A stretch of 64,000 nucleotides of DNA from a virus. Lineage: Duplodnaviria; Caudoviricetes. Every line of letters begins with the position of its first letter. The stretch's first letter is position 1. Location of the stretch: the IMG/VR virus record IMGVR_UViG_3300025913_000019; one strand, 5' to 3'. Positions 9,267 to 61,492 of the stretch are shown here, in pieces. The position numbers and the translations under genes were made by a program. The notes below the pieces were generated by a model. That model was given only the letters and a program-made list of their open reading frames with translations. It was not told the DNA's origin and did no database searches.

Positions 9267-9275
9267 GTACGGTAA
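9267..9275 (+). promoter_or_regulatory. Candidate phage promoter motif ACGGTAAAT
   Basis: Copy of recurring motif, intergenic. Confidence 0.45.
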
Positions 9276-9539
9276 ATGAAGACCATCACATACAAGCTCG
9301 GTGAGGTATGCAAATGGAGTCAAGGAGACAGGGTCGAGTTCCGCTACGTGGACATCGGCCTCAAGCTGATGAACGAGGACGGCGATACGTACCACGATTC
9401 GCACCAGGTGCTCGAGCTGCCGGCGGACGACGCCATGGCCCTGGTTACCCGAATGCAGGCGCTCGAGTCCGCACCGCCCGCTTCGGGTACGAACTCGGAG
9501 GCGGCTACAAGCCCGCCGGCCTGTTCTGGTGACGCATGA
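9276..9539 (+). CDS. Hypothetical protein
   Basis: SD AAGGAG. Confidence 0.65.
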   Translation: MKTITYKLGEVCKWSQGDRVEFRYVDIGLKLMNEDGDTYHDSHQVLELPADDAMALVTRMQALESAPPASGTNSEAATSPPACSGDA

Positions 9540-9780
9540 GATGGAGGTCTCACCCTGCACCATCGGGGCAGCCGTCTGCATCATCCTCCTGGCTGTCGCC
9601 GCAGTCCTCCATTGCCTCTGGCTCTGGCTGGCCCCTGAGCGAGCCCTGCAAGAGATCATCGAGCAGTACAGAGCCGACGACGGTTATCGCATCCCCAACC
9701 ACGAAGCCCAGCGCATCCTTGCCGGTCGGCGCCGGTGGATCACGATCCTGGCGTTGAGCCTCGTCTACTACATCGTCTGA
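9529..9780 (+). CDS. Small membrane protein
   Basis: Two hydrophobic stretches. Confidence 0.6.
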   Translation: MTHEMEVSPCTIGAAVCIILLAVAAVLHCLWLWLAPERALQEIIEQYRADDGYRIPNHEAQRILAGRRRWITILALSLVYYIV

Positions 9781-9787
9781 AAAGGAC

Positions 9788-10099
9788 ATGACCAACAAGA
9801 ACCCCTACCGTATGATCCGCCCTTGGGGCGTGTTCAAAGCACAATTCAAGCTCTTCATCCGAGGCCTGTGGGCGCCGTCCATCATCAAGATGGGTCGCAC
9901 CGTCACGTACTCGGAGACCAATGGCGTGGGCCCGCTCCTGACCAGCGTCCACTACGTCCAGATCGGCACCGAGAGCGGAGAGATCCTCTACCGGTCGCCC
10001 CACATGACGGCCAAGGACCGCGCGGAGTTCGTCCGTCGGACCGAAGCGATCCGTGACTACTACAACCGCAAGAACGAGCGAGGCACCTATGAATTCTGA
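9788..10099 (+). CDS. Hypothetical protein
   Basis: SD AAAGGA. Confidence 0.65.
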   Translation: MTNKNPYRMIRPWGVFKAQFKLFIRGLWAPSIIKMGRTVTYSETNGVGPLLTSVHYVQIGTESGEILYRSPHMTAKDRAEFVRRTEAIRDYYNRKNERGTYEF

Positions 10100-10499
10100 C
10101 ACCGGCATGATGACCGATCCCCGATCCATCAAGCGCGCCAATGCGCTGGGCGACATGCACGACGCGCTCCAAGCCGCGCTGCACGCGATGACCAAGTTCC
10201 TGGCGCTGGCCGATCTCTCGATCCCCGAGGTTAAGGCCAAGGCCGAGGCCATGGCGCTGCGCATGACGCAGCTCATCGACATCGCCGAGTCCACGTTCAG
10301 GAACCCGAACTTCGGCCGTGCCCGGAAGCCCAAGTTCCGCAACGACGGCCCGGTCGCCATGGTCGAAGAGGTGGTGGGTGGCGGAGTCCGACTCTACATC
10401 CACGGCGTCCTGATCCGCAGTGTCGGCTTCAACGAAGCGCCTGCGGTCCGTCGTCTCCGGGACATGGTCAACGAAGCCGCCCTGGCGGAGGCAGCATGA
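10089..10499 (+). CDS. Hypothetical protein
   Basis: SD GAGG; start refined. Confidence 0.65.
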   Translation: MNSDTGMMTDPRSIKRANALGDMHDALQAALHAMTKFLALADLSIPEVKAKAEAMALRMTQLIDIAESTFRNPNFGRARKPKFRNDGPVAMVEEVVGGGVRLYIHGVLIRSVGFNEAPAVRRLRDMVNEAALAEAA

Positions 10500-10858
10500 G
10501 CCACAAGACCTATCCGCGTTCGGGCCGCACGACGACGATGCTGACGGCAGCTCTCATGGCACACGACAAGGGCAAGGCTGTCTACGTCATCGGCATCGAT
10601 CATGCGCACGCCGAGTGGATGCGCGATGAAATGCGGGTCATCATGGAGCGCTTCGGCCGCAATCCGGTGGAGCGTGGCATCTCGAGTATCAAGTTCGAAT
10701 GTGAGTCCAGCCTGGCAGACAGCTTCGACTGGCGCACCGGCATACTCCACGGCGCTGCCAAGAACGTCGAGGTCTTCGTCGATCATTTCGCGCTCGAGTC
10801 GCACTTCTCGTGGGCCTTCCGCGAGGCCCATCGATTCGATCACCCGAAGGCGAACTGA
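10496..10858 (+). CDS. Hypothetical protein, degenerate P-loop-like N-terminus
   Basis: RSGRTTTML..KAVYVIG. Confidence 0.6.
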   Translation: MSHKTYPRSGRTTTMLTAALMAHDKGKAVYVIGIDHAHAEWMRDEMRVIMERFGRNPVERGISSIKFECESSLADSFDWRTGILHGAAKNVEVFVDHFALESHFSWAFREAHRFDHPKAN

Positions 10859-10859
10859 C

Positions 10860-11456: not shown

Positions 11457-13517
11457 ATGGAATTCAAGCCTTTCAAGCAAGCCATCGCCGCGCAGTGGGC
11501 CCGTATGCAGGCCACCGGCAAGGTCTTCCTCACCGGCACGCCCAACGGCGACGAGAACGTCAAGGCCCGTGAGCGCGACCAGCTGTGGGAGCTGTACCTC
11601 GAGTCCTTCCCGGCGGGTACCAACCCGATCTACAAGACGCGCACGGACGCCGACTGCGCGTGCTGCCGCGCCTTCATCCGCACCATCGGCCTGGCTGTCT
11701 CCATCGTGGACGGCAAGCTCGTGTCCGTGTGGGACATCGGCCCCGACTGCGAAGGCGTCGAGCCCGGCTACTACGCGGTCGCGGCCGCCATGTCGAAGCA
11801 CGTCAAGGCGATGCTGCCGGTCGACATCTTCCTGCACTGGCAGAAGGGCGTCGGCACCGACACGTCGAAGAGCCTGACGGGTGACGGCCCGGTCACGGTG
11901 TGGGAGCACTTCCACGTCAACCTCGACCCCAAGTTCCGCCTCGACGAGGACAAGATCCCGACGCGCCAGTCGCAGGTGCGCCAGGCCCAGGCCGTACTCT
12001 ACCGCACGATGGAAGAGATCAGCCTGGACGTCTTCGAGACGGTGGACGAGCTGCTCGCGGTCGACAACCTCTACCGCGGCGAGGAGTTCAAGGACACCTT
12101 CCTGAAGCTCTACGAGGTGGCCAAGAGCTACGACAAGGTCGAGACGGATCGCGCCGGCGTCTACTTCACCTGGATCAAGGTCCTGGAGCTGGGCGAGCGC
12201 GTGACGAAGATGCGCAGCTCGGCCTTCGGCACGCTGCTGATCGATCTCAGCACGGGCATGGATCTCGAAGCGGCCGTGAAGCGCTACGAGGTCGTCATGG
12301 CGCCGACGAACTACCAACGTCCGCAGCCGCTCGTGACGAAGAAGCAGCTCAAGGCCGCGACCGAGAAGGTCGAGGAGCTGGGCTTCACGGGCTCCCTGGC
12401 CCGTCGCTTCGCCAAGCTGGACGACGTCAACGTCGGCAACCTGCTGTTCGTCGATCGCACGAGCCGCGTGAAGCTCGGTGGCAACCCGCTGGACGACCTG
12501 GAAGCGACGGCGACATCCAAGCCGAAGAACCTCGACCGCGTCGAAGAGATGCCGATCGGCGACTTCCTGTCCAACGTGCTGCCGCGTGCCCATCACATCG
12601 AGGTCATGCTCGAGAACCGGCACGCGTCCAACATGGCGGCGCTCATCACGGCGCAGGACCCGACGGCGCCGTCCCTGTTCAAGTGGGGCAACACGTTCAG
12701 CTGGGACTACCAGGGCGGCGTCGCCGACGCGATCAAGGAACGCGTCAAGAGCCGCGGCGGCTCGGTCGAGGGTGACCTGTGCTGCCGTCTCGCCTGGGAG
12801 TACACGGACGATCTCGACCTGCACATGGTCGAGCCGGGTGGCTTCCACATCTACTACCGGAACCGCAACAGCCCGATGGGCGGCCATCTCGACATCGACG
12901 CCAACGGCATGGACGGCCTCATCGAACACCCTGTGGAGAACATCTACTACCCGGACAAGGCCGCGATGCGGGAGGGCATCTACCGGCTGTCGGTCAACAA
13001 CTTCAACCGCCGCAGCATCGGCGTTGGCTTCATCGCCGAGATCGAATTCGGCGGCACCAAGTTCACCTTCGAGTATCCGAAGATGGTTCGCGACAACGAG
13101 ACCGTCGAGATCGCACAGATCAGGTACTCGAAGGCCAAGGGCTTCGAGATCATCGAGTCGCTCCCGCACTCCGAGACGGTAAAGGACGTGTGGGGCCTGA
13201 AGACGCAGAGCTGGCACAAGGTCAACGCCATCATGGTGAGTCCGAATCACTGGGACGGCGGTGCCGAAGGCAACAAGCACTGGTTCTTCATGCTCAACGG
13301 CGCGCGTCATCCCGGCTCGGCGCGCGGCTTCTACAACGAGTTCCTGACCCCGAAGCTGCGCGAGCACCGGCGCGCCTTCGAGCTGGCCGGTGCGAAGCTC
13401 AAGATCGAGGACACCAAGGACCAGCTGTCCGGCCTCGGCTTCAGCTCCACGCTGCCGGCCTCCGTCGTTGTCCGGGTCACCGGCAGCGTCACCCGCATGC
13501 TCCGCGTCGTCTTCTGA
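11457..13517 (+). CDS. Large phage protein with YfaP/DUF2135-like C-terminal domain
   Basis: RLAWEYTDDLDLHMVEPGG..GGHLDIDANG..ENIYY motif; N-terminal DCACC. Confidence 0.6.
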   Translation: MEFKPFKQAIAAQWARMQATGKVFLTGTPNGDENVKARERDQLWELYLESFPAGTNPIYKTRTDADCACCRAFIRTIGLAVSIVDGKLVSVWDIGPDCEGVEPGYYAVAAAMSKHVKAMLPVDIFLHWQKGVGTDTSKSLTGDGPVTVWEHFHVNLDPKFRLDEDKIPTRQSQVRQAQAVLYRTMEEISLDVFETVDELLAVDNLYRGEEFKDTFLKLYEVAKSYDKVETDRAGVYFTWIKVLELGERVTKMRSSAFGTLLIDLSTGMDLEAAVKRYEVVMAPTNYQRPQPLVTKKQLKAATEKVEELGFTGSLARRFAKLDDVNVGNLLFVDRTSRVKLGGNPLDDLEATATSKPKNLDRVEEMPIGDFLSNVLPRAHHIEVMLENRHASNMAALITAQDPTAPSLFKWGNTFSWDYQGGVADAIKERVKSRGGSVEGDLCCRLAWEYTDDLDLHMVEPGGFHIYYRNRNSPMGGHLDIDANGMDGLIEHPVENIYYPDKAAMREGIYRLSVNNFNRRSIGVGFIAEIEFGGTKFTFEYPKMVRDNETVEIAQIRYSKAKGFEIIESLPHSETVKDVWGLKTQSWHKVNAIMVSPNHWDGGAEGNKHWFFMLNGARHPGSARGFYNEFLTPKLREHRRAFELAGAKLKIEDTKDQLSGLGFSSTLPASVVVRVTGSVTRMLRVVF

Positions 13518-17249: not shown

Positions 17250-17290
17250 CAGAGCGCCCGCCGGTTCACGCCTGCGGGCGCTCTGCTTTG
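17250..17290 (+). terminator. Intrinsic terminator-like hairpin
   Basis: CAGAGCGCCCGC/GCGGGCGCTCTG followed by CTTT. Confidence 0.6.
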
Positions 17291-17294: not shown

Positions 17295-17303
17295 ACGGTA
17301 AAT
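17295..17303 (+). promoter_or_regulatory. Candidate phage promoter motif ACGGTAAAT
   Basis: Intergenic, just after terminator. Confidence 0.55.
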
Positions 17304-17336
17304 AACGCATATCTTCAACCCTCAACGGAGTCCTTC

Positions 17337-18890: not shown

Positions 18891-20549
18891 ATGGATCTCC
18901 AACTCAAGGTCAAGACGATCCGGGACATGGTGAAGGCTCTCGGCGATGATGCCGAGCAGCTGGGCACCGCGTCCTGGCGACAGAAGGGGATGAAGCCGGG
19001 TGAGACCCTGCTCGTCAACACGCGCGATCTCGATCCGGCGCAGCTCCAGCTGCTGAAGGAGATCATGAAGGCGAACGACGAACCGGCCAACCGCCAGTTC
19101 AGCCGGCTCGTCAACGTCATGAACGATCCGAGCGCCAAGTCGGTTCCCGGCCTGGACAAGTTCGTCCCGCTCTTCAAGCTCTGGCTGAGCAAGCACGGCA
19201 ATCCGTGGCTTTACAGCGCGAATCCGAAGCTGGCCGGCATCGCTTACTGCGTGGTCGAAGCCACCTACCATCCGCCTGAGTACCGTCGCCGTGACGAGGC
19301 CTACGTCACCATCGAGCTCGGGTACAACACGAAGATGGAGTACCGGACGTGGTCGATCACGATCTACAAGGGCGACGTGAACGAGCCGATGGACAAGATC
19401 CTGGAGAAGAAGGGTCTGGTCCTGCCTGATGAAGACCTGGAGGAGCGCTACAAGCGGCTGTACGCGCGCTACCAGGAGTTCGGCGGCATGCATGGCGAGC
19501 AGTTTTGGGTCAGAGGCGAGGCCGCCGTCCGCCCCACCAAGCGCAACCGCGACTACTACTGGTGGGGCGAGAGCAAGATCAGCCTCATGGGCAAGGGTCG
19601 TCCCACGAAGGCGGTGCTGGATCTCGGGCTCGACAACGACCGCATGGATGCCACGCGCTTCTTCCAGCACTCCGAGGTCTACGGGTCCCGCGTCAAGGTT
19701 CCGACCCATCCGGTGCTGCCGTGCTTCAGCCTCGCGCATCACAGCACGGTGTGGGTCAACGTCGCGGACATGAGCCCGTACAAGTACGAGGAAGGCCTGG
19801 GCGAGCGACTCGTGCTGCCCAACTCGCACCGCAAGCTCATCGGCGCCCTGGTCAAGAACCTCGAAGTCCTGAAGATGGAGGCCGAGGTCGAAGGCAAGTC
19901 GCGGACGATCCGGGCTAAAGCCAGCTCGAACATCATCCTGGCGATGGGCAAGGCCGGCACGGGCAAGACCCTGACGGCCGAGGTCTACGCGGAAGAGATC
20001 CAGCGCCCGCTCTACGAGGTGAACTCGGGGCAGCTGGGTTCTACACCGGATGCGATCGAGACGAACCTGTCCGACGTGCTGGAGCGTTCCGTCCGGTTGA
20101 AGATGCCGCTCCTCATCAACGAGGCCGATGTCTTCATCATGACCCGTGGCACCGACATGCTGCAGAACGCCATCGTCACGGTGTTCCTGCGTCTGCTCGA
20201 GTACCACACTGGCCTCGTCTTCATGACGACGAACCGGCCGAAGGACGTGGACGAGGCGATCAAGTCGCGCTGCATCGCCGAGATCACGTACAACGTGCCG
20301 AAGGCTCCGGAGCGCAAGCGCCTGTGGCAAGGCCTGCTCGCCGAGTTCAACGTCGACCTGGACAAGGACGAGCTGAAGCGTGCGGTCGAGGTGTTCCCCA
20401 CCGTGACTGGTCGCGACATCCAGAACCTGATCCGCCTCACGAGCCGCTACTGCACGGCCGTCGAGGAACCGTTCAACCTGCAGGCGCTGATCGACTGCTC
20501 GATCTTCAAGAGCATCGATCTCGCAGAAGGGACCAAGGTCACCGAATGA
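18891..20549 (+). CDS. AAA+ ATPase
   Basis: Walker A GKAGTGKT, Walker B LLINEAD, sensor MTTNRP, DEAIKSR. Confidence 0.85.
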   Translation: MDLQLKVKTIRDMVKALGDDAEQLGTASWRQKGMKPGETLLVNTRDLDPAQLQLLKEIMKANDEPANRQFSRLVNVMNDPSAKSVPGLDKFVPLFKLWLSKHGNPWLYSANPKLAGIAYCVVEATYHPPEYRRRDEAYVTIELGYNTKMEYRTWSITIYKGDVNEPMDKILEKKGLVLPDEDLEERYKRLYARYQEFGGMHGEQFWVRGEAAVRPTKRNRDYYWWGESKISLMGKGRPTKAVLDLGLDNDRMDATRFFQHSEVYGSRVKVPTHPVLPCFSLAHHSTVWVNVADMSPYKYEEGLGERLVLPNSHRKLIGALVKNLEVLKMEAEVEGKSRTIRAKASSNIILAMGKAGTGKTLTAEVYAEEIQRPLYEVNSGQLGSTPDAIETNLSDVLERSVRLKMPLLINEADVFIMTRGTDMLQNAIVTVFLRLLEYHTGLVFMTTNRPKDVDEAIKSRCIAEITYNVPKAPERKRLWQGLLAEFNVDLDKDELKRAVEVFPTVTGRDIQNLIRLTSRYCTAVEEPFNLQALIDCSIFKSIDLAEGTKVTE

Positions 20550-20735: not shown

Positions 20736-20955
20736 TGCTGGATCGCAGCACTGGTTTTCCTCCGGTTCGCACGTCCAGTCCACGTCGAACCGGTGGCAAA
20801 ACCGGATGCTGTAAATAGGCCCGACGGTGCTTGGACCTAGGTGCTCGAGCTGACCGTCGGCTGACTGGAGCCGTGCGAACTCGCCAACAAGAACGCACCA
20901 CGGTCTTCACCATACAACGAGAGGCACGCCTTGATACCCCGGGCGTGCCTCTTCG
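20736..20955 (+). ncRNA. Candidate structured RNA/leader (4-5 hairpins)
   Basis: Intergenic; stems at 20751-20805, 20821-20860, 20871-20903, 20919-20955. Confidence 0.4.
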
Positions 20956-20974
20956 ACCATTCGGGGGTCAATCG

Positions 20975-21496
20975 ATGAACATCTTCGCGTCCTTTCCTTG
21001 TCCGGAACGCAGCGCCAGGTACCTCGACGACACTCGCATCATCAAGATGGTGCTCGAGTCGTGCCAGTTGATGGCTACCGCGGCGTCGATGCACGGGCGA
21101 TGGGTTGAGGGCTTCCCGTATCCGAGCCACGTCCACCACCCGCTGACGAAATGGGTGGCGGCAGGACGAGAAAATTTCGACTGGCTGTGGGCACACGCCT
21201 GGGCCATGGACTATGAGCGCCGCTGTCGCTACGACAACGACAGGGTGCACAAGACGCTTGACGCGTGCTGGCATGCGAACATGCACAAGGTGCGGTCTGC
21301 ATTGCCGTATGGGCAGACCCCGTTCCACAACAGCGCGCGCAACATGGAGCTCGGCATCGACTTCACGCACATCAAGGACGTGCACAAGGCGTACCGTCTC
21401 TACCTCAAGGCTCGCTGGGAGACGCAGAAGCGCCCCGCGGCCTGCAACATCGCTGGCGTCATGGCACGCGGCGCACACTGGAGAGATCACGAATGA
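20975..21496 (+). CDS. denV: Pyrimidine-dimer DNA glycosylase (endonuclease V family)
   Basis: MNIFASFPCPERSARYLDDTRIIKMVLESCQLM..HVHHPLTKWV..NFDWL. Confidence 0.8.
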   Translation: MNIFASFPCPERSARYLDDTRIIKMVLESCQLMATAASMHGRWVEGFPYPSHVHHPLTKWVAAGRENFDWLWAHAWAMDYERRCRYDNDRVHKTLDACWHANMHKVRSALPYGQTPFHNSARNMELGIDFTHIKDVHKAYRLYLKARWETQKRPAACNIAGVMARGAHWRDHE

Positions 21497-26420: not shown

Positions 26421-26644
26421 TGCGGGCCCTCATCGTCCTGCTGGCGCTGGCTGGTTGTGAGCGACACGCAGAACCGACGCCGGTCCCGGTCGTGGCGGCC
26501 GTCGCATCGGCTCCGGCTTCTGCTCCTGCTTCTGCTCCTGCGTCGGCACCGCCTCCGGTCTGGCACTACCATCCGACGCCCAAGCAACAACACGCGTGTC
26601 TGTACGCCGACTTCGACTACAGACGTGATCGCTACTGTCATTGA
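26420..26644 (+). CDS. Small lipoprotein
   Basis: Lipobox LAGC; APAS repeats. Confidence 0.65.
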   Translation: MRALIVLLALAGCERHAEPTPVPVVAAVASAPASAPASAPASAPPPVWHYHPTPKQQHACLYADFDYRRDRYCH

Positions 26645-26654
26645 AGGAGTTCAC

Positions 26655-27572
26655 ATGAGCAACGAAATCAAGTACGCACCCGCTGACGATCCGAACGTGC
26701 AGCTGATTGCCGACACCCTGGTCGATGCGCTGGGGCTCAAGGTCCTGCCGCACGTCGCACTCGTGGAGATCGCACAGCGCGTCGTCGCCAAGATGAAGAT
26801 CGAGGCGGGCGAACCCGAACCCTTCTTCGTCGGCAACACGTACCGGACGCAGGACGGCCAGCTCGTCAAGTTCGTAGGCGTCGCCAACGAAGGCAACAGC
26901 TACGAGACGATGGTCGACGAGAACGGGCATCATCGCTACACGCGGCGCGGTGCCGACAGTGGCCGGCTCACGGGCACGAACGGCGAGTTCGGCGAAGGCG
27001 GCAACGTGCGACCGCTGTACGCACGACCGCCTGCCTACGCCATCCCGCCCATGACGCTCATGGTGCCCGAGGGCTACAAGATCCTCAAGACCACGACATT
27101 CGAGGAGCGCAAGTGGCCGGGTGGCGACTACTACGGCAAGTGCTGTGACTGCGGCCGCGAGTTCATGGGCCCGAAGCGTCAGCACATCTGCAACGTCTGC
27201 GTCAACGAGGTCGAAGCCCCGCTGATTCCGACCGCGATCCACGGCCTGGGCAACGGCGCGTTCAAGATCGGACACTTCAACGTCTTCACCGACGTGAAGA
27301 ACGATCCCGAGTACAAGGGCGAGGCCGTGGTCTCCTACGGCGAGCGTCTGGTCTACAAGGAGCCGAAGGCGCCCGAGGCAATGACCAACATGGAGCTCAG
27401 CGGCGCCATCATCAAGATGCAGCGGCTGCTCGAACATCGCCTGGCAGTCATCAACGGCGAAGAGAAGCCCGACGCAGCACAGAACGCGGGCTTGAAGATG
27501 TGGAAGGCCGCAGGTGGTCACACCGATCTCAGCTCGGCGCCGCTGTCGGAGTCGGACGGCATGCCGACCTGA
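26655..27572 (+). CDS. Modular hypothetical protein with Zn finger
   Basis: CCDCGREF..HICNVC; SD AAGGAG. Confidence 0.7.
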   Translation: MSNEIKYAPADDPNVQLIADTLVDALGLKVLPHVALVEIAQRVVAKMKIEAGEPEPFFVGNTYRTQDGQLVKFVGVANEGNSYETMVDENGHHRYTRRGADSGRLTGTNGEFGEGGNVRPLYARPPAYAIPPMTLMVPEGYKILKTTTFEERKWPGGDYYGKCCDCGREFMGPKRQHICNVCVNEVEAPLIPTAIHGLGNGAFKIGHFNVFTDVKNDPEYKGEAVVSYGERLVYKEPKAPEAMTNMELSGAIIKMQRLLEHRLAVINGEEKPDAAQNAGLKMWKAAGGHTDLSSAPLSESDGMPT

Positions 27573-27580
27573 CTGTAAAG
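27572..27580 (+). promoter_or_regulatory. Candidate phage promoter motif ACTGTAAAG
   Basis: Intergenic, 26 nt before Nudix gene. Confidence 0.6.
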
Positions 27581-27605
27581 ATGGACGTAACCGTTAGGAG
27601 CACAC

Positions 27606-31223: not shown

Positions 31224-31432
31224 ACTGGCGCGCTCAACGCGACGAGATGGAGGCTCGCAGCCAGCGTTGGTCCGAACGGACTGCGCTGGCAGAGCTCTCC
31301 CTGACCCACACCATCGACAAGGGCCTGATTCGTGCGAAGGGTAAAGAGGGGCTGACGGCCCATCAAGCCGACGCTCTGCAGTACCTGATCGATGACCACG
31401 ATTACCGAAAGGATGACGATGCCGACGAATGA
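31220..31432 (+). CDS. Small hypothetical protein
   Basis: GTGA overlap. Confidence 0.5.
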   Translation: MNWRAQRDEMEARSQRWSERTALAELSLTHTIDKGLIRAKGKEGLTAHQADALQYLIDDHDYRKDDDADE

Positions 31433-33064: not shown

Positions 33065-33644
33065 AGAAACCGCGATCCGTTCCATGCTCATGGAGCTGGA
33101 TGTCCCGCCTCACAAGCTGGACGTGTCGAAGCCCGACACCACCAAGTGGCTGCTCGACAACCTGCGAGTCCGCAACGTCGGCCACGTGGCCTACGCGCCG
33201 ATCATGGAGAACCTGATCCTCCTGTGCGAGCGCAAGAACTGGCTGAAGCACACGCGGCTCAAGTCCTATCGTGAGCACGTGGCGGAGGTGAAGAACAACG
33301 ACGCCTACCAGGCCTTGAAGGCCATGGTGAAGACGCCGGGGCCGTCCACCGGCCGCATGGACTCGGGCCGGACTCCTCCCTACCACAGCATCCCGGCTGG
33401 CCTGACGATCAAGCGTGCGCGGGAAGAGGCAGACAAGATGCTTCTGATCCCAAGGCAAGAGCCGAAGCCGGGTGCCAGGCTCATCATCACGATGCCCAAG
33501 GCCCGGCCTCCGGGCACCGGCATGGCCGTGATGGATGCACCTTACGGCCTTGGCAAGAGCAATGGCCCGCGTCGGCAGCGCGGTCGCATCAACGAAGAGG
33601 CCACTGCGGTTCGACTCGAAGAGGAGCTGAACCGCAAGACCTAA
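33057..33644 (+). CDS. Hypothetical basic protein
   Basis: SD GAGG. Confidence 0.65.
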   Translation: MIEETAIRSMLMELDVPPHKLDVSKPDTTKWLLDNLRVRNVGHVAYAPIMENLILLCERKNWLKHTRLKSYREHVAEVKNNDAYQALKAMVKTPGPSTGRMDSGRTPPYHSIPAGLTIKRAREEADKMLLIPRQEPKPGARLIITMPKARPPGTGMAVMDAPYGLGKSNGPRRQRGRINEEATAVRLEEELNRKT

Positions 33645-33675
33645 TTTCATTTCCTTCCAGTGAGAGGAGCGGATC

Positions 33676-34888: not shown

Positions 34889-34897
34889 ACTGTAAAG
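34889..34897 (+). promoter_or_regulatory. Candidate phage promoter motif ACTGTAAAG
   Basis: Intergenic. Confidence 0.6.
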
Positions 34898-34941
34898 ACA
34901 AGGAGGTGACACATGTTATAGTCCAACAACGGAGCTATACC

Positions 34942-35129: not shown

Positions 35130-35138
35130 ACTGTAAAG
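35130..35138 (+). promoter_or_regulatory. Candidate phage promoter motif ACTGTAAAG
   Basis: Intergenic, heads the RNA island. Confidence 0.6.
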
Positions 35139-35291
35139 AAGGAGTACAAGGGCTTCGGCCCCCGTCAACAGGATAGCACCTGGCGAAACGGATGATGAAC
35201 ACGGCAAGCTGAACGTGCGAGTTGAGAAACGCACGGGCAGTTTTCGGGTAGCCACTCCCGATTCTTCATCAACGCCGTTAGGAGCTACACC

Positions 35292-37661: not shown

Positions 37662-37668
37662 GCAACGA

Positions 37669-37841: not shown

Positions 37842-37850
37842 ACGGTAAAG
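37842..37850 (+). promoter_or_regulatory. Candidate phage promoter motif ACGGTAAAG
   Basis: Intergenic, before structured region. Confidence 0.55.
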
Positions 37851-37857
37851 AAGTAAC

Positions 37858-38099: not shown

Positions 38100-38252
38100 A
38101 TGAAGAAGACCCTGTTCTCCGCCGCACTGCTGATCGCGGTCGCCCTCGGTGGCGTCGCCATGGCCCAGGATTCGACGCCGGACGGCTGCATGCCCGGCAA
38201 CGGCGGCTCGGCCCCCATCTGCACCCCGGGCACGGGCCCCGGCGGCAAGTAA
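38100..38252 (+). CDS. 50-aa secreted peptide with two Cys (missing from ORF track)
   Basis: SD AGGAG; MKKTLFSAALLIAVALGGVAMA|QDSTPDGCMPGNGGSAPICTPGTGPGGK. Confidence 0.7.
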   Translation: MKKTLFSAALLIAVALGGVAMAQDSTPDGCMPGNGGSAPICTPGTGPGGK

Positions 38253-38299
38253 AGATCAACGCAGCGAGGGCGAAAGAAGAGTCACCCGCAGTTGCAGTG

Positions 38300-38760
38300 A
38301 GAAGTCCCGCCTCCCCAGGGACGACGTAGTGTCCGAGCAATCGGGCGTGTGTCAAACCATAGGGAACATGGTCGTGTGTCGGCACTCGCCGACGAGAGTC
38401 TGAAGCTGACGGATGTTGGACGGGGGTTCGATTCCCCCCGGCTCCACCACTAGCGCCTGCGTACATGCGGGTGCTAGTGATGGGGCCGACCAGGTTTCGA
38501 CAGCGTTGCTGATGTGGAGGACGACGACTCGCGCGTATGGCCTAGTCTAGCTCAGCGTTACAGAGCCGACAGGGTACAAAACTAACTGCCAACGACGAGC
38601 AATTCGCTCAGGCCCTCGCGGCCTAAGCGCAGAACAGCTGCGGGTTCTACCTAGGCAACTAGGTGTGTACGCAGCCGGGCCGGACACAGCGGATAACCTC
38701 TGCTGTGTGTCTGAGTAAGCCGGGGCCGCAAGGTCCAGGTTAGGGACGGTGGGCTTCGGC
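38300..38760 (+). ncRNA. ssrA: Circularly permuted two-piece tmRNA (outer ends uncertain)
   Basis: Acceptor half ends CGGCTCCACCA at 38449; 5' half GGGGCCG starts 38482; G3-U70; tag ANDEQFAQALAA* at 38588-38626. Confidence 0.92.
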
Positions 38761-39449: not shown

Positions 39450-39506
39450 TACAACGAGCCCCGGGTCGAGCAGTCGATGCCGGGGCTACCCATTTCTGGA
39501 GCACAC

Positions 39507-40408: not shown

Positions 40409-40409
40409 C

Positions 40410-40901: not shown

Positions 40902-40903
40902 CC

Positions 40904-41625: not shown

Positions 41626-41626
41626 C

Positions 41627-41803
41627 ATGGCACCGACCCATGTCTCAACAGATTGCAACGGCATGATCGCAGTCACGGTCATGCCGGAAGCAGAGGAGTC
41701 TGCAGCGGAGGGTAGCGAGCAGACCGAAGAGGAGCGCGGGCCAGACCTCAAAGACTGTAAAGAGGATCGTCCGCGTGACAATCAACTCAACCAAAGCCGT
41801 TAG
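41627..41803 (+). CDS. Small acidic hypothetical protein
   Basis: TGACATG junction. Confidence 0.4.
   Translation: MAPTHVSTDCNGMIAVTVMPEAEESAAEGSEQTEEERGPDLKDCKEDRPRDNQLNQSR
41754..41762 (+). promoter_or_regulatory. Candidate phage promoter motif ACTGTAAAG
   Basis: 44 nt before glycosyltransferase. Confidence 0.55.
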
Positions 41804-41806
41804 CAC

Positions 41807-42592
41807 ATGACCATCACTGCCAAAGAGATCGGAGAGAACTACCCGCTCTCCATCGACGACGCCAAGGAGTACGCTGGCCGCACCATCGCGAGCCGCGCCT
41901 TCTACCACACCGTCTTCTCCGCCGTCAAGAACAAGCTGCCGCTGTCCGTCGTCCGCATGGGTGATGGCGAGCGTCACCTCTTCATCGACTGCGCGACTGC
42001 TGCCGCCAACAAGGTGTCTGGCCTCCCGGTCGATTCGTTCGACACCGCGTGGCGCACGCGCATGGGCATCGAGGGCATGACCTTCGAGCAGCTCAACGAT
42101 TCGATGCGCGCGTCGATCGCTCTCACCAACTACTTCGGGCCGAACGTCAACGGCCTGATGCAGCCCAACTACAGCGTCTACCCGTGGTACAAGATCCACG
42201 GCAAGGGTCAGCCGCTGGTCGACAACTTCTTCGTCAACGAGTGGGACCTGGAACATCGCACCGCGCTCCTGAAGGCGGCCGGCAATGTCCTGGTGCTGCA
42301 CGCGAACCCGGTGACGGCCATCACGTTCGCACGCCGTGCGCGGGCCTACCTCAACGTCGGCATCCGCCACGTGAGCCTCAAGTCCTGGCGTGATGCCGAC
42401 GCGGCCCTCACGGAGTGCGCGAAGTGGGACTACCCGCTGGTCCTCGTCAGCGCCGGTCCGGCCTCCAAGTGGATCATCCCTGGGATCGCCCGACAAGGCA
42501 AGGTCGCGCTCGACATCGGCAACGCCATGGACCACTGGCTGCTGCTCGAACTCTACAAGGCCGACCCGTCGAAGCTGGACGCCGTCAAGTGA
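41807..42592 (+). CDS. GT-D-fold glycosyltransferase-like protein
   Basis: SVVRMGDGE and LVLVSAGPASK..GKVALDIGN match GT-D (DUF1792) signatures. Confidence 0.75.
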   Translation: MTITAKEIGENYPLSIDDAKEYAGRTIASRAFYHTVFSAVKNKLPLSVVRMGDGERHLFIDCATAAANKVSGLPVDSFDTAWRTRMGIEGMTFEQLNDSMRASIALTNYFGPNVNGLMQPNYSVYPWYKIHGKGQPLVDNFFVNEWDLEHRTALLKAAGNVLVLHANPVTAITFARRARAYLNVGIRHVSLKSWRDADAALTECAKWDYPLVLVSAGPASKWIIPGIARQGKVALDIGNAMDHWLLLELYKADPSKLDAVK

Positions 42593-43074
42593 CCGAGATC
42601 CACGTCCTTCCGTACCGCGAACCACCGCCCAGGTTGACCGCGACCGCAAGGTCGAAGACGTTGAAGGCGCACTACGAGGCCTTCCTCGCACATCATCGGT
42701 CTGACCAGCGCGTCGAGATCGAGGAAACGCTGCAAGACGAAACCATCGGCGACATCCTGACCTTCATCGGTCTGGAGCCGCTGGTGTCGATCAAGCACAT
42801 GCGGTCGATGGCGCGTCGCATTCGCATGCTGAGTCGTGGCAAGATTGGCTATCAGCAGGCGATCGAGTTGCAGGCTCGGGCTCTTGGCTACCGGACGCAG
42901 GCAGCCATGTTCGCGGCGAACCCGCGGAAGGTCGTGGCTCTCAACATTCGAGGCGGCAACGAGGTCCCATTCTCGATGTCGCTCTTCATGAACGAGAAGG
43001 AAACGCGTGGTGATCGTGTGCAGCGACGCAAGCGCACGCTCTACCTGCGCGACAACCCAGGAGCTCAAGCTTGA
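42589..43074 (+). CDS. Hypothetical protein with small helical domain
   Basis: AIELQARALGYRT resembles glyoxalase-superfamily-associated helical motif. Confidence 0.55.
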   Translation: MTEIHVLPYREPPPRLTATARSKTLKAHYEAFLAHHRSDQRVEIEETLQDETIGDILTFIGLEPLVSIKHMRSMARRIRMLSRGKIGYQQAIELQARALGYRTQAAMFAANPRKVVALNIRGGNEVPFSMSLFMNEKETRGDRVQRRKRTLYLRDNPGAQA

Positions 43075-43313
43075 GCGACTACAAGCAACCGATGCAGCAC
43101 GGCCCGGGCACTGGCCCCATGTACGTCAATGACATGCCTCTGAAGCTGACACCGCGGCTGAAGCGCTGCGCCCGATGCAACACCGATCGGGAGCCTCAAG
43201 GTGGCTGCCAGGTCACGGTCGATAAGTGGGTGTGCGGCAAGTGCTGGCGTCCCAGCCTTCACACCCAGCGGCTCAAGAGCAAGTCCAAGGCGGTCACGGC
43301 CCCGGCGGCCTGA
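43071..43313 (+). CDS. Small Zn-ribbon protein
   Basis: CARC..CGKC. Confidence 0.6.
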   Translation: MSDYKQPMQHGPGTGPMYVNDMPLKLTPRLKRCARCNTDREPQGGCQVTVDKWVCGKCWRPSLHTQRLKSKSKAVTAPAA

Positions 43314-43324
43314 TCAAATCCGAA

Positions 43325-43333
43325 ACTGTAAAG
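43325..43333 (+). promoter_or_regulatory. Candidate phage promoter motif ACTGTAAAG
   Basis: Intergenic. Confidence 0.6.
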
Positions 43334-43401
43334 AAGACAAGTGCACGTTTGCAAACACGCATAGCACTTCTTCACCACACAACGCAAGAGGTTACACCAA
43401 C

Positions 43402-44487
43402 ATGACGACGATCGACGCAGCGACCAAGACCATCCTGGTGCCTGGCTCCGTCTGGACCCGCGAGACCAAGAACGGCAACAAGGACGTCACGGTCCTGTTC
43501 ATCACGAACCAGGGCCTGCCGCCCGAGACGCTGGCCAAGTGCCCGCAGCAGGTGGTCTTCCTCAACGACGAGGGCGCCGTCCTGTCGATGAAGCCCGAGC
43601 AGTTCGTGGCCAAGCGCAACTTCTCGACGATGAACCCCGAAGCCGAGGTGATCCTCCGGCACATCGTCGAGGGCTTCGACGACGAGGACGAAGAAGGCGA
43701 CGACGAGATCGACCTGGACTCGATCCAGCTGCCCGAGTCGTCCGAAGGCGATGCCGACGTGAGCCTGGAAACCGAGCCGGTCGCCGAGAACTTCGAGACC
43801 ACGGGCAACCTCCTGGCCGTGCAGGCGCAGCAGCAGGCGCAGATGAACAACACGTCGCCGGTGCTGCAGCTGCAGGACGGCCTGAACGCCGCGCTGGTGC
43901 ACCTGCTGACGAGCCGCTTCGTCTCCTACTCCGAGTCCGTGGCGCCGAACGGCACCGGCGACACGCTGCACACGATGCGCTTCGCCCTGAGCCCGGAACT
44001 CGACCTCGACATGCTCAACAAGGCGTTCGGCCTCGAAGGCCCGATCACCAAGTTCACGATCAACAGCGCTGTCGCGCCGACGACGGTGGACATCGACGGC
44101 TTCTTCCAGGTCTGGCTCGAAGTCGTGGCACCGATGGGCAAGTTCCCGTCGCAGTCCTACGGCCTGGTCCAGCTGACGAGCCGCGGCGACTTCCGTGAAC
44201 AGCAGGTCGTGCAGCAGAAGCCGCAGCCCGCAGCCGCGCCGGTGGCCGCCGATCCGATGGAGACCCCGAGCGGCCTGTACCAGGCGCCGGAAGTCGAAGC
44301 CGAGACGGCCGACGAGCAGGCGGTGGCCAAGGCGGCGCCGGCTCACAGCTCGTTCATCAGCGACGCGACCATCGTGGGCCAGAAGCCGACGCCGCCGGCC
44401 GCCGAGCCGACGATCAACCTGGCTGCGATCCCGACCGAGACGCCTGCGGCGCCGCAGATGCCGGGTCTCAACATCGTGAACGCGTGA
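43402..44487 (+). CDS. Hypothetical acidic protein
   Basis: SD AGAGG; strong codon bias. Confidence 0.75.
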   Translation: MTTIDAATKTILVPGSVWTRETKNGNKDVTVLFITNQGLPPETLAKCPQQVVFLNDEGAVLSMKPEQFVAKRNFSTMNPEAEVILRHIVEGFDDEDEEGDDEIDLDSIQLPESSEGDADVSLETEPVAENFETTGNLLAVQAQQQAQMNNTSPVLQLQDGLNAALVHLLTSRFVSYSESVAPNGTGDTLHTMRFALSPELDLDMLNKAFGLEGPITKFTINSAVAPTTVDIDGFFQVWLEVVAPMGKFPSQSYGLVQLTSRGDFREQQVVQQKPQPAAAPVAADPMETPSGLYQAPEVEAETADEQAVAKAAPAHSSFISDATIVGQKPTPPAAEPTINLAAIPTETPAAPQMPGLNIVNA

Positions 44488-44551: not shown

Positions 44552-44585
44552 GAAGGGGCCCCACTCGGGGCCCCTTCTGCCTTTT
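44552..44585 (+). terminator. Terminator-like hairpin
   Basis: GAAGGGGCCCC-ACTC-GGGGCCCCTTC then CTTTT. Confidence 0.65.
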
Positions 44586-46726: not shown

Positions 46727-47146
46727 ATGATGAAACTCGACAAGCTGGTTCGTCTCAGCGAACGGATGCGCCGGCTCAACAGCCGCCTGGTCAAGGTCGT
46801 CGGCTACAAGACCGGCACCGGCAAGGACGGCATCCCGACCGCGGTGGCGCGCACCTACACGCCCCTCGAGTACAGCCTCGGCGGCCGCCGCATCATGCGT
46901 GCTCGGGACAAGAACAAGTACACGTCGTCGATCAAGTTTCTCGACCGCGGACTCCACGTCCGTGTCTCGTGCTCGTGTCCCGACTACATGTACCGGTGGG
47001 AGTACGCCAACAACCTGGTCGGTGCCTCGCACATCATCTACGGCAACGGTGAGGCGCCGGACGAGACCAACCCGCAGTACAGGCCCGGTCTTTGCAAGCA
47101 CCTGCTTGCGCTCCGGACCTTGGTGAAGGAGCAGCACGGGATATGA
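46727..47146 (+). CDS. SWIM zinc-finger protein
   Basis: VSCSCPDY..GLCKHLLAL. Confidence 0.8.
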   Translation: MMKLDKLVRLSERMRRLNSRLVKVVGYKTGTGKDGIPTAVARTYTPLEYSLGGRRIMRARDKNKYTSSIKFLDRGLHVRVSCSCPDYMYRWEYANNLVGASHIIYGNGEAPDETNPQYRPGLCKHLLALRTLVKEQHGI

Positions 47147-48093
47147 CGAGCAACTACACCCACAGCGCTACGTTCGCGTCGCTGAAGGGCATCAAGGAAG
47201 AGCTGACCGAGAACTACACGACGTTCCAGCTGCTGACGACCCTCGACTACTTCATCGAGAACGCGATCGATCCGATCATCAGCGCCCATCCGGACCTGAC
47301 CGACGTGTACTTCTCCAAGGTCATCGCCTACCAGTTCGACAACCCGAACGTGAAGTGCAGCCGCAATGAGAAGGCGTCGCTGCCGCAACTTCTGTTCAAC
47401 GCGGTGACGACGCAGGGACGACGCAAGCGGGAGTTCCAGCGCAAGATGCTGCTCAACCGCGGGCTGCTCTTCGGACTCGTCTCGGTCTTCCTCAAGACTG
47501 TAAATACGTATCGGAAGTTGCACAGCCCGCACGTGAAGTTGCGTCGGGCTCAGCGACTGGTACTTCGTCAGCTTGCCGAGGAGCGGACGGGCTCGTCCCA
47601 CATCTTCCCTGCGATCCTGCAGGTGGAGTTCTGGATTCAGCACGCCTACCACTTCAAGGAACTGATCGTCCAGAAGTACACGCGCCTGGCGTCGAACCAG
47701 GCGCGCAAGACATACATGGACGTCAACTGCGACAAGAGCCTGGACGACATCATCCAGGTGTACATGGTCTTCCTCGCCAAAGCGATCGACCGATGCGACA
47801 GTCGGCAGGGCGTGCTGACGGAGTACATCAAGTACTGGTTCTACTCGGCGAAGTCCGAGATCATGAAGGAGGTAGCCAAGGACGGGCTCAACACGAGTTA
47901 CGATCAGCTGCTCGAATCGGGCATCGACTCGCAGTCGGTTGATCCTGACACCCAGTTCGAGGCGGCGCAGCACATCTGTGCGACCGCCAAGGGACTCGAT
48001 CCAACGGGAGCGTATCGGTTTGCGCTCCACATCCCCGAGCACTACAGCAACGCGGATCTCCGCAAGCTGCAACTTTTCACCACAACCAACTGA
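47143..48093 (+). CDS. Divergent sigma70-like transcription factor
   Basis: DDIIQVYMVFLAKAIDRCDSRQGVLTEYIKYWFYSA aligns with region 2 DLIQEG..L.KAVDKF..RG..FSTYA.WWIRQA. Confidence 0.55.
   Translation: MTSNYTHSATFASLKGIKEELTENYTTFQLLTTLDYFIENAIDPIISAHPDLTDVYFSKVIAYQFDNPNVKCSRNEKASLPQLLFNAVTTQGRRKREFQRKMLLNRGLLFGLVSVFLKTVNTYRKLHSPHVKLRRAQRLVLRQLAEERTGSSHIFPAILQVEFWIQHAYHFKELIVQKYTRLASNQARKTYMDVNCDKSLDDIIQVYMVFLAKAIDRCDSRQGVLTEYIKYWFYSAKSEIMKEVAKDGLNTSYDQLLESGIDSQSVDPDTQFEAAQHICATAKGLDPTGAYRFALHIPEHYSNADLRKLQLFTTTN
47497..47505 (+). promoter_or_regulatory. Internal candidate promoter ACTGTAAAT
   Basis: Formed by rare ACT GTA AAT codons upstream of SSB/UvsX. Confidence 0.45.
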
Positions 48094-54118: not shown

Positions 54119-54133
54119 GCAATTTTATGCCAA
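54119..54133 (+). promoter_or_regulatory. Candidate late-promoter motif CAATTTTATG.CAA
   Basis: Second copy at 59535-59549; both intergenic. Confidence 0.4.
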
Positions 54134-59534: not shown

Positions 59535-59549
59535 CCAATTTTATGGCAA
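59535..59549 (+). promoter_or_regulatory. Candidate late-promoter motif CAATTTTATG.CAA
   Basis: Matches 54119 copy. Confidence 0.4.
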
Positions 59550-59595
59550 CCGCGGGCCCTTGATTGGGCCCGCCCTCCTTCAACCTGGAGTCCAC

Positions 59596-59853
59596 ATGAA
59601 GCTCAATGCGAAGTCTCGCCTGCAGGCTGACGATGCAGCAGCCGACGCCGACAAGAAGGCGAAGGAGAACATCGACAAGCGGATCGAGAACAACAAGCAG
59701 AAGGTCGAGCACCTGAAGCACTCGATGCCGAGCCGCGAGAACCGGCAGTCCGAGAACCAATTCCAACGCAACACGACCGAGAAGCAGATCAACCGCACGA
59801 AGGAGGAAAACTCCGACCTGCGGCTCCGCAAGTCTCAGATCGGGAACCACTGA
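59596..59853 (+). CDS. Small coiled-coil protein
   Basis: SD GGAG. Confidence 0.65.
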   Translation: MKLNAKSRLQADDAAADADKKAKENIDKRIENNKQKVEHLKHSMPSRENRQSENQFQRNTTEKQINRTKEENSDLRLRKSQIGNH

Positions 59854-59854
59854 C

Positions 59855-60115
59855 ATGTTCGCCTACCTCCTGGATGCCCGGATCAAACCGGAGTCCGCAT
59901 ACGAGTTCTTCACCTACCAAGGTGCAAAGCCGGTGACGGTCGACTTCCGTGGCAAGCCGATCACCATCAAGCAGGGCACGCGCTTCGGCGTCCGCCCGAG
60001 CTCGAATGGCAAGCACATCCGGCTCGTGTTTCCTCAAGACCAGACGCGCGTCATCACCATCGACCTGCCGACTGCCGAGCAGCTGGCCAAGGGCGTGAAG
60101 CGGGAGTCGAAATGA
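59855..60115 (+). CDS. Hypothetical protein
   Basis: TGACATG junction. Confidence 0.7.
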   Translation: MFAYLLDARIKPESAYEFFTYQGAKPVTVDFRGKPITIKQGTRFGVRPSSNGKHIRLVFPQDQTRVITIDLPTAEQLAKGVKRESK

Positions 60116-60537
60116 CCATCCACTCCGTCGGCATTCAGTACGACCAGATGAATGGCGACGTGGAGGTGCAGGTGCTGCGGGATCTCATGATCCTGCAAGG
60201 CACCTTCGGCAACGTGTGGGTCAACGACCCGGCCGGCAAGATGGACCCCGAGATGCTGAAGCGTATCGGAGTCAGCCGCACGTCCGATGCACCGGAGCTC
60301 ATCATCAACTACAAGGTGGGCTCCGAGTTCCTCCCCGTCGACCCCAACATGGAAGTCGTCGAGCGTGACCTGTCGCCACCGAACGGTGCGCCGACCCTCG
60401 ATGGTTCGGAGCGACCTGGCTACTACCTGAAGCCGCAAGGGCGCGACTGCACGAACTTCACCGAGCTGTACCTCAACCGTGCCCACCCGCGGGGCAACGG
60501 CGTGACTGATCCCCTGGTCATCTATCTGTGGTCCTAA
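60112..60537 (+). CDS. Hypothetical protein
   Basis: ATGA overlap. Confidence 0.7.
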   Translation: MTIHSVGIQYDQMNGDVEVQVLRDLMILQGTFGNVWVNDPAGKMDPEMLKRIGVSRTSDAPELIINYKVGSEFLPVDPNMEVVERDLSPPNGAPTLDGSERPGYYLKPQGRDCTNFTELYLNRAHPRGNGVTDPLVIYLWS

Positions 60538-60646
60538 GGCTGCTCCTGTTTTAAGGACGGCCTCCACAGCCTCATATCCTGGCGATTGGCTGTCGTCTGT
60601 GATTCACACTTCAGCCATTCTCGCTCTCAACTTCGCAGAGCAAACA

Positions 60647-61492
60647 ATGCCCTCCATCAACGATTACCTCGGTGTAGCGTCCTCCCTGAAAGGTACAGGG
60701 CTGACGCTCGCCAACCAAGTTGCACAAGGCAACGTCGAAGGCGGTGTCGCAGGCGCCATCGGATCGGTTCAGACACTGTCCGGCAGCCTCGGTTCCTTCG
60801 GCGGCACAAGCCTCGGCGATGACTTCGCTGGCATCAACGCGCGCGGCGATGCCGTGCAGTCGTGGTGCTGGTACGCCGTCATGCCTGACATCTCGAACAC
60901 GAGCGCTCTCAACGCCGGCGTCGTCTCTGGCACGAACGTGGGTGCCCCGCTGGTCGGTCTGCCCTGGTACTACGTGCAGACGGCCAACCTCCCGATGCGC
61001 CAGTTCGGCCTCGACACGATCAAGCGCAATGGCCACAGCGTGCACTATGCTCAAGGCTACGAAGTTGGGACGCTGAGCCTGGGCCTCTTCATGGACTCGA
61101 GCTCGAAGGCGCATCAGTACCTCAAGGCCTGGCAGGGTCTCGTCCTCGCCAACACGAATCCGAAGTCGGTCCAGAACCAGGGCAACTGGGGCTATCCGGC
61201 CGACTACAAAAAGGACATCGTCATCGTCGTCCTCTCGGTCGACAAGAAGGTGCTGCTGAACGTCAAGCTCATCAACTGCTGGCCGTCGGAGCCGACCGCC
61301 ACCGAGCTGACGAGCGGTGAGGCCACACCACTTGTCCAGACGGTAACTTTCGTCGTCGAGGATGTCGACATCACTGTAAATAACGACCGGGGTCTGCTGG
61401 ATACCCTGACCAGTACTGCGACCGGATACGCAACTTCGGCCCTGACTGGCGCCCTGAATTCCCAGCTCAACGACATCATCACGAACTTCTAA
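60647..61492 (+). CDS. Tail tube/baseplate tube-initiator-like protein (gp19/gp54 fold)
   Basis: ANLP..TLSLGLFMD..YLKAWQ..YPADYKKDI..LINCWPS..TVTF. Confidence 0.7.
   Translation: MPSINDYLGVASSLKGTGLTLANQVAQGNVEGGVAGAIGSVQTLSGSLGSFGGTSLGDDFAGINARGDAVQSWCWYAVMPDISNTSALNAGVVSGTNVGAPLVGLPWYYVQTANLPMRQFGLDTIKRNGHSVHYAQGYEVGTLSLGLFMDSSSKAHQYLKAWQGLVLANTNPKSVQNQGNWGYPADYKKDIVIVVLSVDKKVLLNVKLINCWPSEPTATELTSGEATPLVQTVTFVVEDVDITVNNDRGLLDTLTSTATGYATSALTGALNSQLNDIITNF
61373..61381 (+). promoter_or_regulatory. Internal candidate promoter ACTGTAAAT
   Basis: Rare ACT GTA AAT codons, 114 nt before next gene. Confidence 0.45.

Follow-up and report, generated by a model that had tools for sequence, protein, structure and literature searches.

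The ACKGTAAAKA box of phiRSL1-like jumbo phages: a probable single-box promoter and its candidate sigma-family reader

Most jumbo phages are without an RNA polymerase of their own, and how they bring the host enzyme under their control is for the most part unclear. A 64-kb stretch of phage DNA (IMG/VR record IMGVR_UViG_3300025913_000019; its whole length is referred to below as the window) gives this question a concrete form: a short word, ACKGTAAA (K being G or T), recurs along one of its strands. Is this word a promoter and, if so, which protein reads it? We hold with considerable confidence that the word, extended to the 10-mer ACKGTAAAKA, is a promoter; the best explanation as a whole, in which it is a promoter element and the sigma factor encoded by the open reading frame (ORF) at 47143 is its reader, is one on which we stand evenly balanced.

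Protein matches identify the window as part of a phiRSL1-like jumbo phage: the SSB, terminase and portal proteins encoded in it show 44-54% identity to those of phiRSL1 (Ralstonia), BcepSauron and BCSR5 (Burkholderia) and Motura (Achromobacter), and the gene order sigma-SSB-RecA-terminase-resolvase-portal is the same as in phiRSL1 ORF224-211. A 12-kb megablast of the window against the phage collection gave no match. Window genes with a clear coding signal in third-position GC content (GC3) all lie on the plus strand, and the few short minus-strand ORFs are probably spurious.

A strand-specific intergenic word

The window was scanned on both strands, with 100 dinucleotide-preserving shuffles as control. 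Exact ACKGTAAA was found 11 times on the plus strand and never on the minus strand, against an expectation of 0.43, and none of the 100 shuffles reached 11. Of the 11 copies, eight (73%) fall in intergenic DNA, which accounts for 8.4% of the window and in which 0.055 copies would be expected; five of the eight sit 25-153 nucleotides (nt) ahead of the gene starts 17337, 27606, 35292, 41807 and 43402. The three intragenic copies are all in frame and read as Thr-Val-Lys or Thr-Val-Asn, with codons that are rare in the window (GTA, 2.4% of Val; ACT, 6.3% of Thr; AAT, 10.1% of Asn). The original prediction, made from the letters of the DNA, had described the plus-strand bias, a chance expectation under one, a mostly intergenic location and the use of rare GTA and AAT codons inside genes, all of which the counts bear out; its near-matches at 7049 (ACAGTAAA), at 20808 (GCTGTAAA) and on the minus strand (19210-19217, GCTGTAAA) are likewise present, and its coordinates agree with ours but for the first copy, which begins at 9269 rather than at 9267.

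In an unbiased Markov-model count, ACTGTAAA was the second most over-represented 8-mer of the window, the rest of the list being acidic-codon repeats. Seven of the sites have the form ACTGTAAA(G/T)A and four the form ACGGTAAA(G/T)N. Variants with a single mismatch to ACKGTAAA are not enriched (22 found in the window, the 11 exact copies included, vs. 23.7 expected), and the word is therefore sharply specified, with no halo of degenerate copies around it. A search with the core GTAAAKA gave 13 copies on the plus strand and none on the minus strand, adding intergenic variants at 20808, 31338 and 38246.

For a closer definition, 14 sites were aligned, 11 from the window and three from a near-twin contig (G001, IMGVR_UViG_3300005577_000028, 91 kb). 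The full motif is the 10-mer ACKGTAAAKA, with G or T at position 9 in all 14 sites and A at position 10 in 11 of them; these two positions are informative though they lie outside the search pattern, and information content is limited to the 10 positions. Nothing resembling a -35 box is conserved 15-40 nt upstream, in agreement with what had been predicted, nor does a second element stand at a fixed distance upstream or downstream in the aligned sites. The sole upstream position with any signal is the one 18 nt from the motif, where 11 of the 14 sites have a G.

Conservation in relatives and cultured phages

Loci around 42 sigma homologues (38-62% GC), drawn from a total of 119 homologues, many of them on contigs of about 200 kb, were fetched for comparison; one 212-kb contig encodes a sigma identical to that of the window. 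Over these loci GTAAATA is the top strand-specific intergenic 7-mer, with 59 copies on the gene strand and one on the other strand, in 34 loci. The near-twin contig carries 10 copies of the motif on its plus strand and none on its minus strand. At homologous places ACTGTAAA is kept in relatives with 80% and 70% sigma identity, whose GC contents are 51% and 42%, and the box is the sole conserved block upstream of the GT-D-like glycosyltransferase gene and of the homologues of gene 43402, the flanks being unalignable; among the seven aligned orthologues of the latter region, one (L025) carries the box variant ACTATAAATA. The three bases 5' of the core differ by clade, being ACT, ACG or ACC in the clade of the window and mostly TAG or xAG in the clade of phiRSL1 and BcepSauron.

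Whole genomes of cultured phages were searched with the same word read backwards as control. GTAAATA occurs 35 times in phiRSL1 (control 4), 29 times in BcepSauron (control 3), 42 times in Motura (control 7), 38 times in BCSR5 (control 2) and 48 times in Erwinia phage Y3 (control 19). Copies in phiRSL1 lie on the plus strand at 2-71 kb and 205-231 kb and on the minus strand at 90-204 kb, which agrees with gene direction in the annotated parts examined. phiRSL1 shows no enrichment of the exact 8-mer ACKGTAAA (4 vs. 4); this had suggested a clade-restricted motif, an idea that was dropped once the core GTAAATA gave 35 vs. 4.

An element with the same core has already been recorded, as a prediction, for the cultured relative Lu11 (NC_017972.1), whose genome paper is reportedly that of Adriaenssens et al. 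(2012, J Virol 86:6369). The record contains "putative middle/late promoter" features, two of which were examined, namely CTGTAAATAGTAAGAA, with AA ahead of it, and CTGTAAATGGTAGGTA. These features, which read CTGTAAATAG and CTGTAAATGG, share the core CTGTAAAT(A/G) with the window sites; CTGTAAAT occurs 48 times in Lu11 (control 6), in strand blocks. Both phages thus have many copies with a strong strand preference, and both encode the same divergent sigma family; one Lu11 box lies 200 nt after its sigma gene. Lu11 differs in belonging to the sister "Lupandier" group and in that its two annotated features are 16 nt long, with an extra conserved GTA downstream, and the window form, unlike that of Lu11, allows a G at position 9. 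The features annotated in Lu11 are predictions, to which neither a mapped start nor a reader is attached. The present analysis adds that the element is conserved throughout the family and that its upstream bases are specific to each clade; it also adds a copy embedded within the gene for the sigma factor, the evidence of a divergent gap and a second class of box.

The embedded copy (ACTGTAAATA, 47497..47506) lies inside the sigma gene, as Thr-Val-Asn codons, 596 nt upstream of the SSB gene at 48102. In 10 relatives (42-62% GC) its Val codon is still GTA and its Asn codon still AAT, and all three synonymous positions are unchanged in seven of these 10, while adjoining residues vary. The embedded box is a feature of the window's clade and is absent from the sigma genes of phiRSL1 and BcepSauron; clades without it have a box in the gap between the sigma and SSB genes instead, so that the SSB block is always preceded by a box.

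The divergent gap, 70 bp long, is found in the near-twin contig. There the box, which we call class A, faces a plus-strand gene for a Cas4-like nuclease, 16 nt before its ATG, and a box of the second class (class B, described below) faces a minus-strand gene (PHROG "starvation-inducible transcriptional regulator"); the two stand back-to-back, 31 nt apart (76653-76693, corresponding to 1470-1510 of locus L011). In another relative, L034, a class-A box ends 9 nt ahead of a tRNA-like gene (438-519), for which ARAGORN reads a four-base anticodon (ggcc). A hairpin 5 nt after the box is predicted at four of six orthologous sites, individually non-significant (z from -2.4 to 0.04).

Strand bias, intergenic position, conservation among orthologues, the match with gene direction in phiRSL1 and the divergent gap make it very probable that the box is a promoter. 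ACKGTAAAKA would thus be the local form of an element with the core GTAAA(T/G)A, common to Lu11 and the phiRSL1-like jumbo phages (Mieseafarmvirus, BcepSauron, Motura and BCSR5), that acts as a single -10-like box without a -35 partner, with transcription probably starting about 5-9 nt past the last A of the box.

The candidate reader and a second class of box

phiRSL1 lacks an RNA polymerase of its own, and rifampicin blocks the phage (PMC5468394). For phages of this kind, which lack their own RNA polymerase, host core RNA polymerase would have to carry a specificity factor supplied by the phage. The most likely candidate is the 316-amino-acid (aa) product of the plus-strand ORF 47143..48093, a sigma-70-family protein that appears to keep the promoter-melting sigma2 domain and in which the -35-reading sigma4 is undetectable. 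It is orthologous to phiRSL1 ORF224 and PaBG gene 118, within the gene order sigma-SSB-RecA-terminase-portal, and the PaBG paper, using HHpred, called this family a sigma70 factor (PMC7412058).

That ORF 47143 is sigma-like, as had been proposed, is supported by several lines of evidence. The protein matches PHROG 17569 ("RNA polymerase sigma factor") with an E value of 1.5e-46, and Pfam Sigma70_r2 matches residues 176-230 at 16 bits (cut-off 24; E 0.011). When a profile built from 45 homologues was run against the sequences of the PDB, 20 of 21 matches were RpoD chains (E about 0.005), the block xLDDIIQxYL...CDSRQGVLTTFIQxWFYSA being aligned with sigma70 regions 2.1-2.3. The AlphaFold model (predicted local distance difference test, pLDDT, 88) resembles primary sigma factors in all of the best 50 structural matches listed (VIA-align Z 11.3-14.3; root-mean-square deviation 3-7 Å; 216-258 residues aligned). 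The match spans model residues 5-261 against about 95-450 of sigma70, that is, region 1.2, an insertion resembling the sigma70 non-conserved region, sigma2 and the start of sigma3. It ends at residue 261, and the last 55 residues form three short helices. No Sigma70_r4 or r4_2 match was found anywhere in phiRSL1 or the near-twin contig, though no structural search was made with these helices on their own.

In the complete genomes of phiRSL1 and BcepSauron, no clear Sigma70_r2-like gene was found other than the orthologue of ORF 47143; one further Sigma70_r2 match in phiRSL1, interrupted by stop codons (E 0.14), was rejected as negligible. Lu11 encodes a homologue (129296-130282; E 1.5e-27 with the profile of ORF 47143 homologues), as do Motura, BCSR5, Y3 and PaBG, and class A is enriched in all of these but PaBG. 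Directly upstream, a 139-aa ORF (46727..47146, plus strand) overlaps the sigma start with its stop codon (ATGA). The SWIM protein that the original prediction placed beside the sigma gene corresponds to this ORF: its CxC...CxH pattern is present, while the Pfam SWIM match is below threshold (E 0.017). Relatives, too, encode a similarly sized protein just ahead of their sigma, and the SWIM-like protein of the window could be a partner of the sigma factor.

A sigma2 domain without a detectable sigma4 fits a promoter with a -10-like box and no -35 element. This architecture, the status of ORF 47143 as the only detectable sigma, the likeness of the box to the one that gp55 reads in T4 and the way in which class A, more plainly than class B, accompanies the sigma family in the cultured phages Lu11 and BCSR5 are the points that link the protein to the box. 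Granted that the box is a promoter, we lean slightly towards the sigma of ORF 47143 as its reader. The single-box promoter proposed originally finds good support in position, strand, conservation and the divergent region, and its proposed reader proves to be of the sigma family.

A known system of this type is that of the T4 late promoters (TATAAATA), which are read by gp55, a phage sigma of 185 aa without sigma4, on the host core together with gp33 and the gp45 clamp. Like these, the element described here consists of one A/T-rich box close to -10 and lacks a -35; its TGTAAATA form is one position off TATAAATA, and KGTAAAKA matches at six or seven of eight positions, with G for A at the second position in every copy. 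The candidate reader, with its sigma1.2, insertion and sigma2, resembles primary sigma70 rather than gp55, and no gp55 chain was among the structure or sequence matches listed for ORF 47143. As the box differs and the reader resembles primary sigma70, the system is not a strict member of the T4 type. Unlike T4 late promoters, the box also heads DNA-metabolism and RNA genes as well as some genes of the virion region, and a second box class coexists with it. A literature search found no promoter assigned to the Mieseafarmvirus or "Lupandier" sigma family.

This second class came from a k-mer screen of the 42 loci as another strand-specific intergenic word, (C)AATTTNAT(G), referred to here as CAATTTNAT. 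The window has three such boxes on its plus strand, 26-51 nt ahead of gene starts: AATTTCAT at 33643..33650, 26 nt before ATG 33676; AATTTTAT at 54121..54128, just 3' of the terminase gene and 30 nt before a resolvase-like gene at 54158; and AATTTTAT at 59537..59544, just 3' of the portal gene. Class B is found 19 times in phiRSL1 (control 0), including the same place after the terminase gene, and its 9-mer with leading C 11 times in BcepSauron and nine times in Motura (control 0 in both); the 8-mer occurs just seven times in BCSR5 (control 1) and 48 times in Lu11 (control 20), there without strand blocks. Both classes shift between the close and middle clades of relatives, and the far clade gave no clear motif.

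With two conserved single-box classes and one detectable sigma, a different assignment has to be weighed. Class A may be a promoter with another reader, be it an unrecognised phage protein, a factor delivered with the virion or a modified host holoenzyme; the sigma would then be made from class A and would switch on CAATTTNAT ahead of virion-type genes, in a middle-to-late cascade like those of T4 and SPO1. We regard this as possible, if doubtful. Several observations favour it, or otherwise weigh against the sigma of ORF 47143 as the reader of class A. As a second box exists and one sigma-like gene was detected in phiRSL1 and BcepSauron, either class could be the target, and the sigma may read class B instead; covariation with the sigma cannot separate the two classes, because both change between clades. 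The sigma gene appears to lie in a gene run downstream of the class-A site at 43325, with a strong hairpin and T-run (44552-44577) but no class-B site between them, so that a sigma reading class A would need another way to be made first. Matches to sigma70-type promoters are not enriched in the 8-48 kb region, which implies that something must start class-A transcription before the sigma exists. In the window, class-B boxes directly follow the terminase and portal genes, as one does the terminase gene in phiRSL1; class-B boxes keep a tight 20-29 nt to start codons, and a cascade in which the sigma reads class B would be equally natural.

Further points bear on the candidate and on single sites. 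All Pfam and NCBIfam sigma matches of ORF 47143 are to region 2 and fall under the curated cut-offs. PaBG (NC_022096.1) has a sigma homologue, and neither GTAAATA (3 vs. control 6) nor TGTAAAT (10 vs. control 4) is enriched in it, so that its promoter word, if any, must differ. The class-A site ACGGTAAATG at 9269..9278 cannot serve its downstream ORF, since it overlaps the start codon (ATG 9276); it carries a G at position 10 and ranks as the weakest of the candidates. This site, ACGGTAAAGG at 13176..13185 (inside the 686-aa ORF 11457-13517, in the frame Thr-Val-Lys and 387 nt from the next gene) and the site of relative L010, alike in their G at position 10, may be weak sites or chance matches. 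The motif itself with its strand, position and conservation, and the sigma-like fold, are observations; promoter activity, the distance to the start site and the identity of the reader are what we infer from them. Literature searches turned up no paper that describes the motif, maps a start or names a reader for these phages, Lu11 being covered through the annotation of its record, and a search for RNA sequencing runs that contain 34001-44000 of the window listed none.

Against a different reader stands the better agreement of class A with the sigma family across cultured genomes, where it is strong in Lu11 and BCSR5 and class B is weak or unoriented. In its TA dinucleotide and A-rich run, class A also resembles the -10 elements that sigma2 domains typically recognise; it is one or two of eight positions off the gp55 box, and no candidate for a second factor was found. 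The two classes can be joined in one tentative picture, for which we would not claim much: two phage-specific single-box classes, GTAAAKA and CAATTTNAT, might run most of the phiRSL1-like genomes. The lone sigma4-less sigma would read GTAAAKA with the help of the upstream bases (ACK here), much as in an extended -10, and would also read the copy in its own gene, kept by selection on synonymous sites, which would tie expression of SSB and RecA to its own activity; class B would need a reader of an unrecognised kind, possibly involving the coupled SWIM-like protein.

It is improbable that the box is an element for host sigma-70, either an extended -10 or an activator site beside a host-type -10, with no phage sigma involved. 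There is a precedent in Thermus phage P23-45, which redirects the host holoenzyme to extended -10 promoters without a -35; in the ACTG form of the box a TG precedes TAAA, and the copy at 34889 overlaps a sigma70-like match with TGnTATAGT. However, TAAAKA ends in A and so lacks the final T of a -10 hexamer, the TG abuts the hexamer with no one-base spacer, and AG replaces TG in phiRSL1 and BcepSauron. No second conserved element stands at a fixed distance on either side, and a sigma70-type promoter scan of 8-48 kb gave matches at or below chance, the host pattern, a TTGACA-like -35 placed 16-18 nt ahead of a TAnnnT -10, not being found at the boxes. The host element was rejected on the final A, the missing upstream box and the level of consensus matches.

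Least probable of all is a word acting in RNA (processing, stability or translation) or in DNA outside transcription (Chi-like, replication, packaging or modification): the box points the same way as transcription, which would also hold for an RNA signal, and several copies are directly followed by purine-rich, Shine-Dalgarno-like sequence, but its distance to start codons varies widely, with about 16 nt (in the near-twin contig) at the lower end and over 100 nt at the upper, and Chi-like or replication words would be mostly intragenic, against 73% of copies in 8.4% of the DNA. A translation signal was rejected on the variable start distance and the non-coding targets, the boxes ahead of the tmRNA stretch and of the L034 tRNA-like gene arguing against such a role; an RNA processing site, because the 70-bp divergent gap offers no upstream transcript to process; and a Chi-like or replication-oriented word, on the mostly intergenic position of the copies.

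Units along the window and meaning for the phage family

If class A is the promoter proposed here, the units that it would head in the window, all on the plus strand, include small genes, a glycosyltransferase gene, the SSB/RecA block (from the copy embedded in the sigma gene), a tRNA gene and a transfer-messenger RNA (tmRNA) gene. The first of the intergenic sites with a gene start nearby, ACGGTAAATA at 17295..17304, has a GTG start (17337) 33 nt downstream. A GC-rich 12-bp hairpin followed by CTTTG (17250..17285) lies directly upstream of it; the hairpin was read from the letters and is absent from the output of the intrinsic-terminator scan of 8-48 kb, which was at chance level, and it is a possible terminator closing the preceding transcription unit. 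The intergenic variants GCTGTAAATA at 20808..20817 and AGGGTAAAGA at 31338..31347 lie ahead of ORFs 20831-21496 and 31392-31682, respectively. Between them, ACTGTAAAGA at 27572..27581 overlaps the stop codon of ORF 26457-27572, and ATG 27606 follows 25 nt on.

The same form, ACTGTAAAGA, recurs in the intergenic sites 34889..34898 and 35130..35139. The former heads a region (34889-35290) that contains no ORF with a strong coding signal. Right after this box, at 34895-34922, there is a Shine-Dalgarno sequence with a two-codon mini-ORF (ATG TTA TAG), overlapped by the sigma70-like extended -10 match (TGTTATAGT). The latter lies 153 nt ahead of ORF 35292-35696, which is followed by a tRNA-Thr gene (35785-35860).

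Another intergenic site, ACGGTAAAGA at 37842..37851, heads an ORF-free stretch that ends in a permuted tmRNA gene (38357..38717; ARAGORN; Rfam RF04321, 87.5 bits, match 38387-38626). The variant box CAAGTAAAGA at 38246..38255 lies about 100-130 nt ahead of the tmRNA gene, and an ORF-free, hairpin-rich stretch separates the tmRNA from class-A boxes several hundred bases upstream. The tmRNA is circularly permuted, with the tag peptide ANDEQFAQALAA; the same tag is found in relative L034 (1163-1608; 69% sigma identity).

Two further ACTGTAAAGA sites follow. The one at 41754..41763 lies 44 nt ahead of the GT-D-like glycosyltransferase gene (41807-42592) and is kept in three relatives whose flanks differ, and the one at 43325..43334 is 68 nt ahead of ATG 43402. 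The hairpin at 44552-44577, a perfect 11-bp GC-rich one with a T-rich tail, stands between gene 43402-44487 and a peptidase-like gene; for the latter, TTG 44539, where the longest ORF begins, is probably not the true start, and GTG 44611, which has GAGGTGA ahead of it, is the better fit. The last copy, ACTGTAAATA at 61373..61382, reads as Thr-Val-Asn codons near the end of ORF 60599-61492 and is 113 nt from gene 61495-62628.

Reviews state merely that the sigma homologues of jumbo phages "likely" read phage-specific promoters. The present work offers a concrete candidate promoter word that is sharply specified over 38-62% GC and present in 29-48 copies in phiRSL1, BcepSauron, Motura, BCSR5 and Lu11. 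With a second word and a single candidate sigma alongside it, the question of the reader becomes directly testable on phages that can be grown, and PaBG is a natural test case for the co-evolution of sigma and box. Annotators gain a simple marker of transcription units in this phage family, and orthogonal promoter and sigma parts are on offer for Burkholderia, Ralstonia and Pseudomonas.

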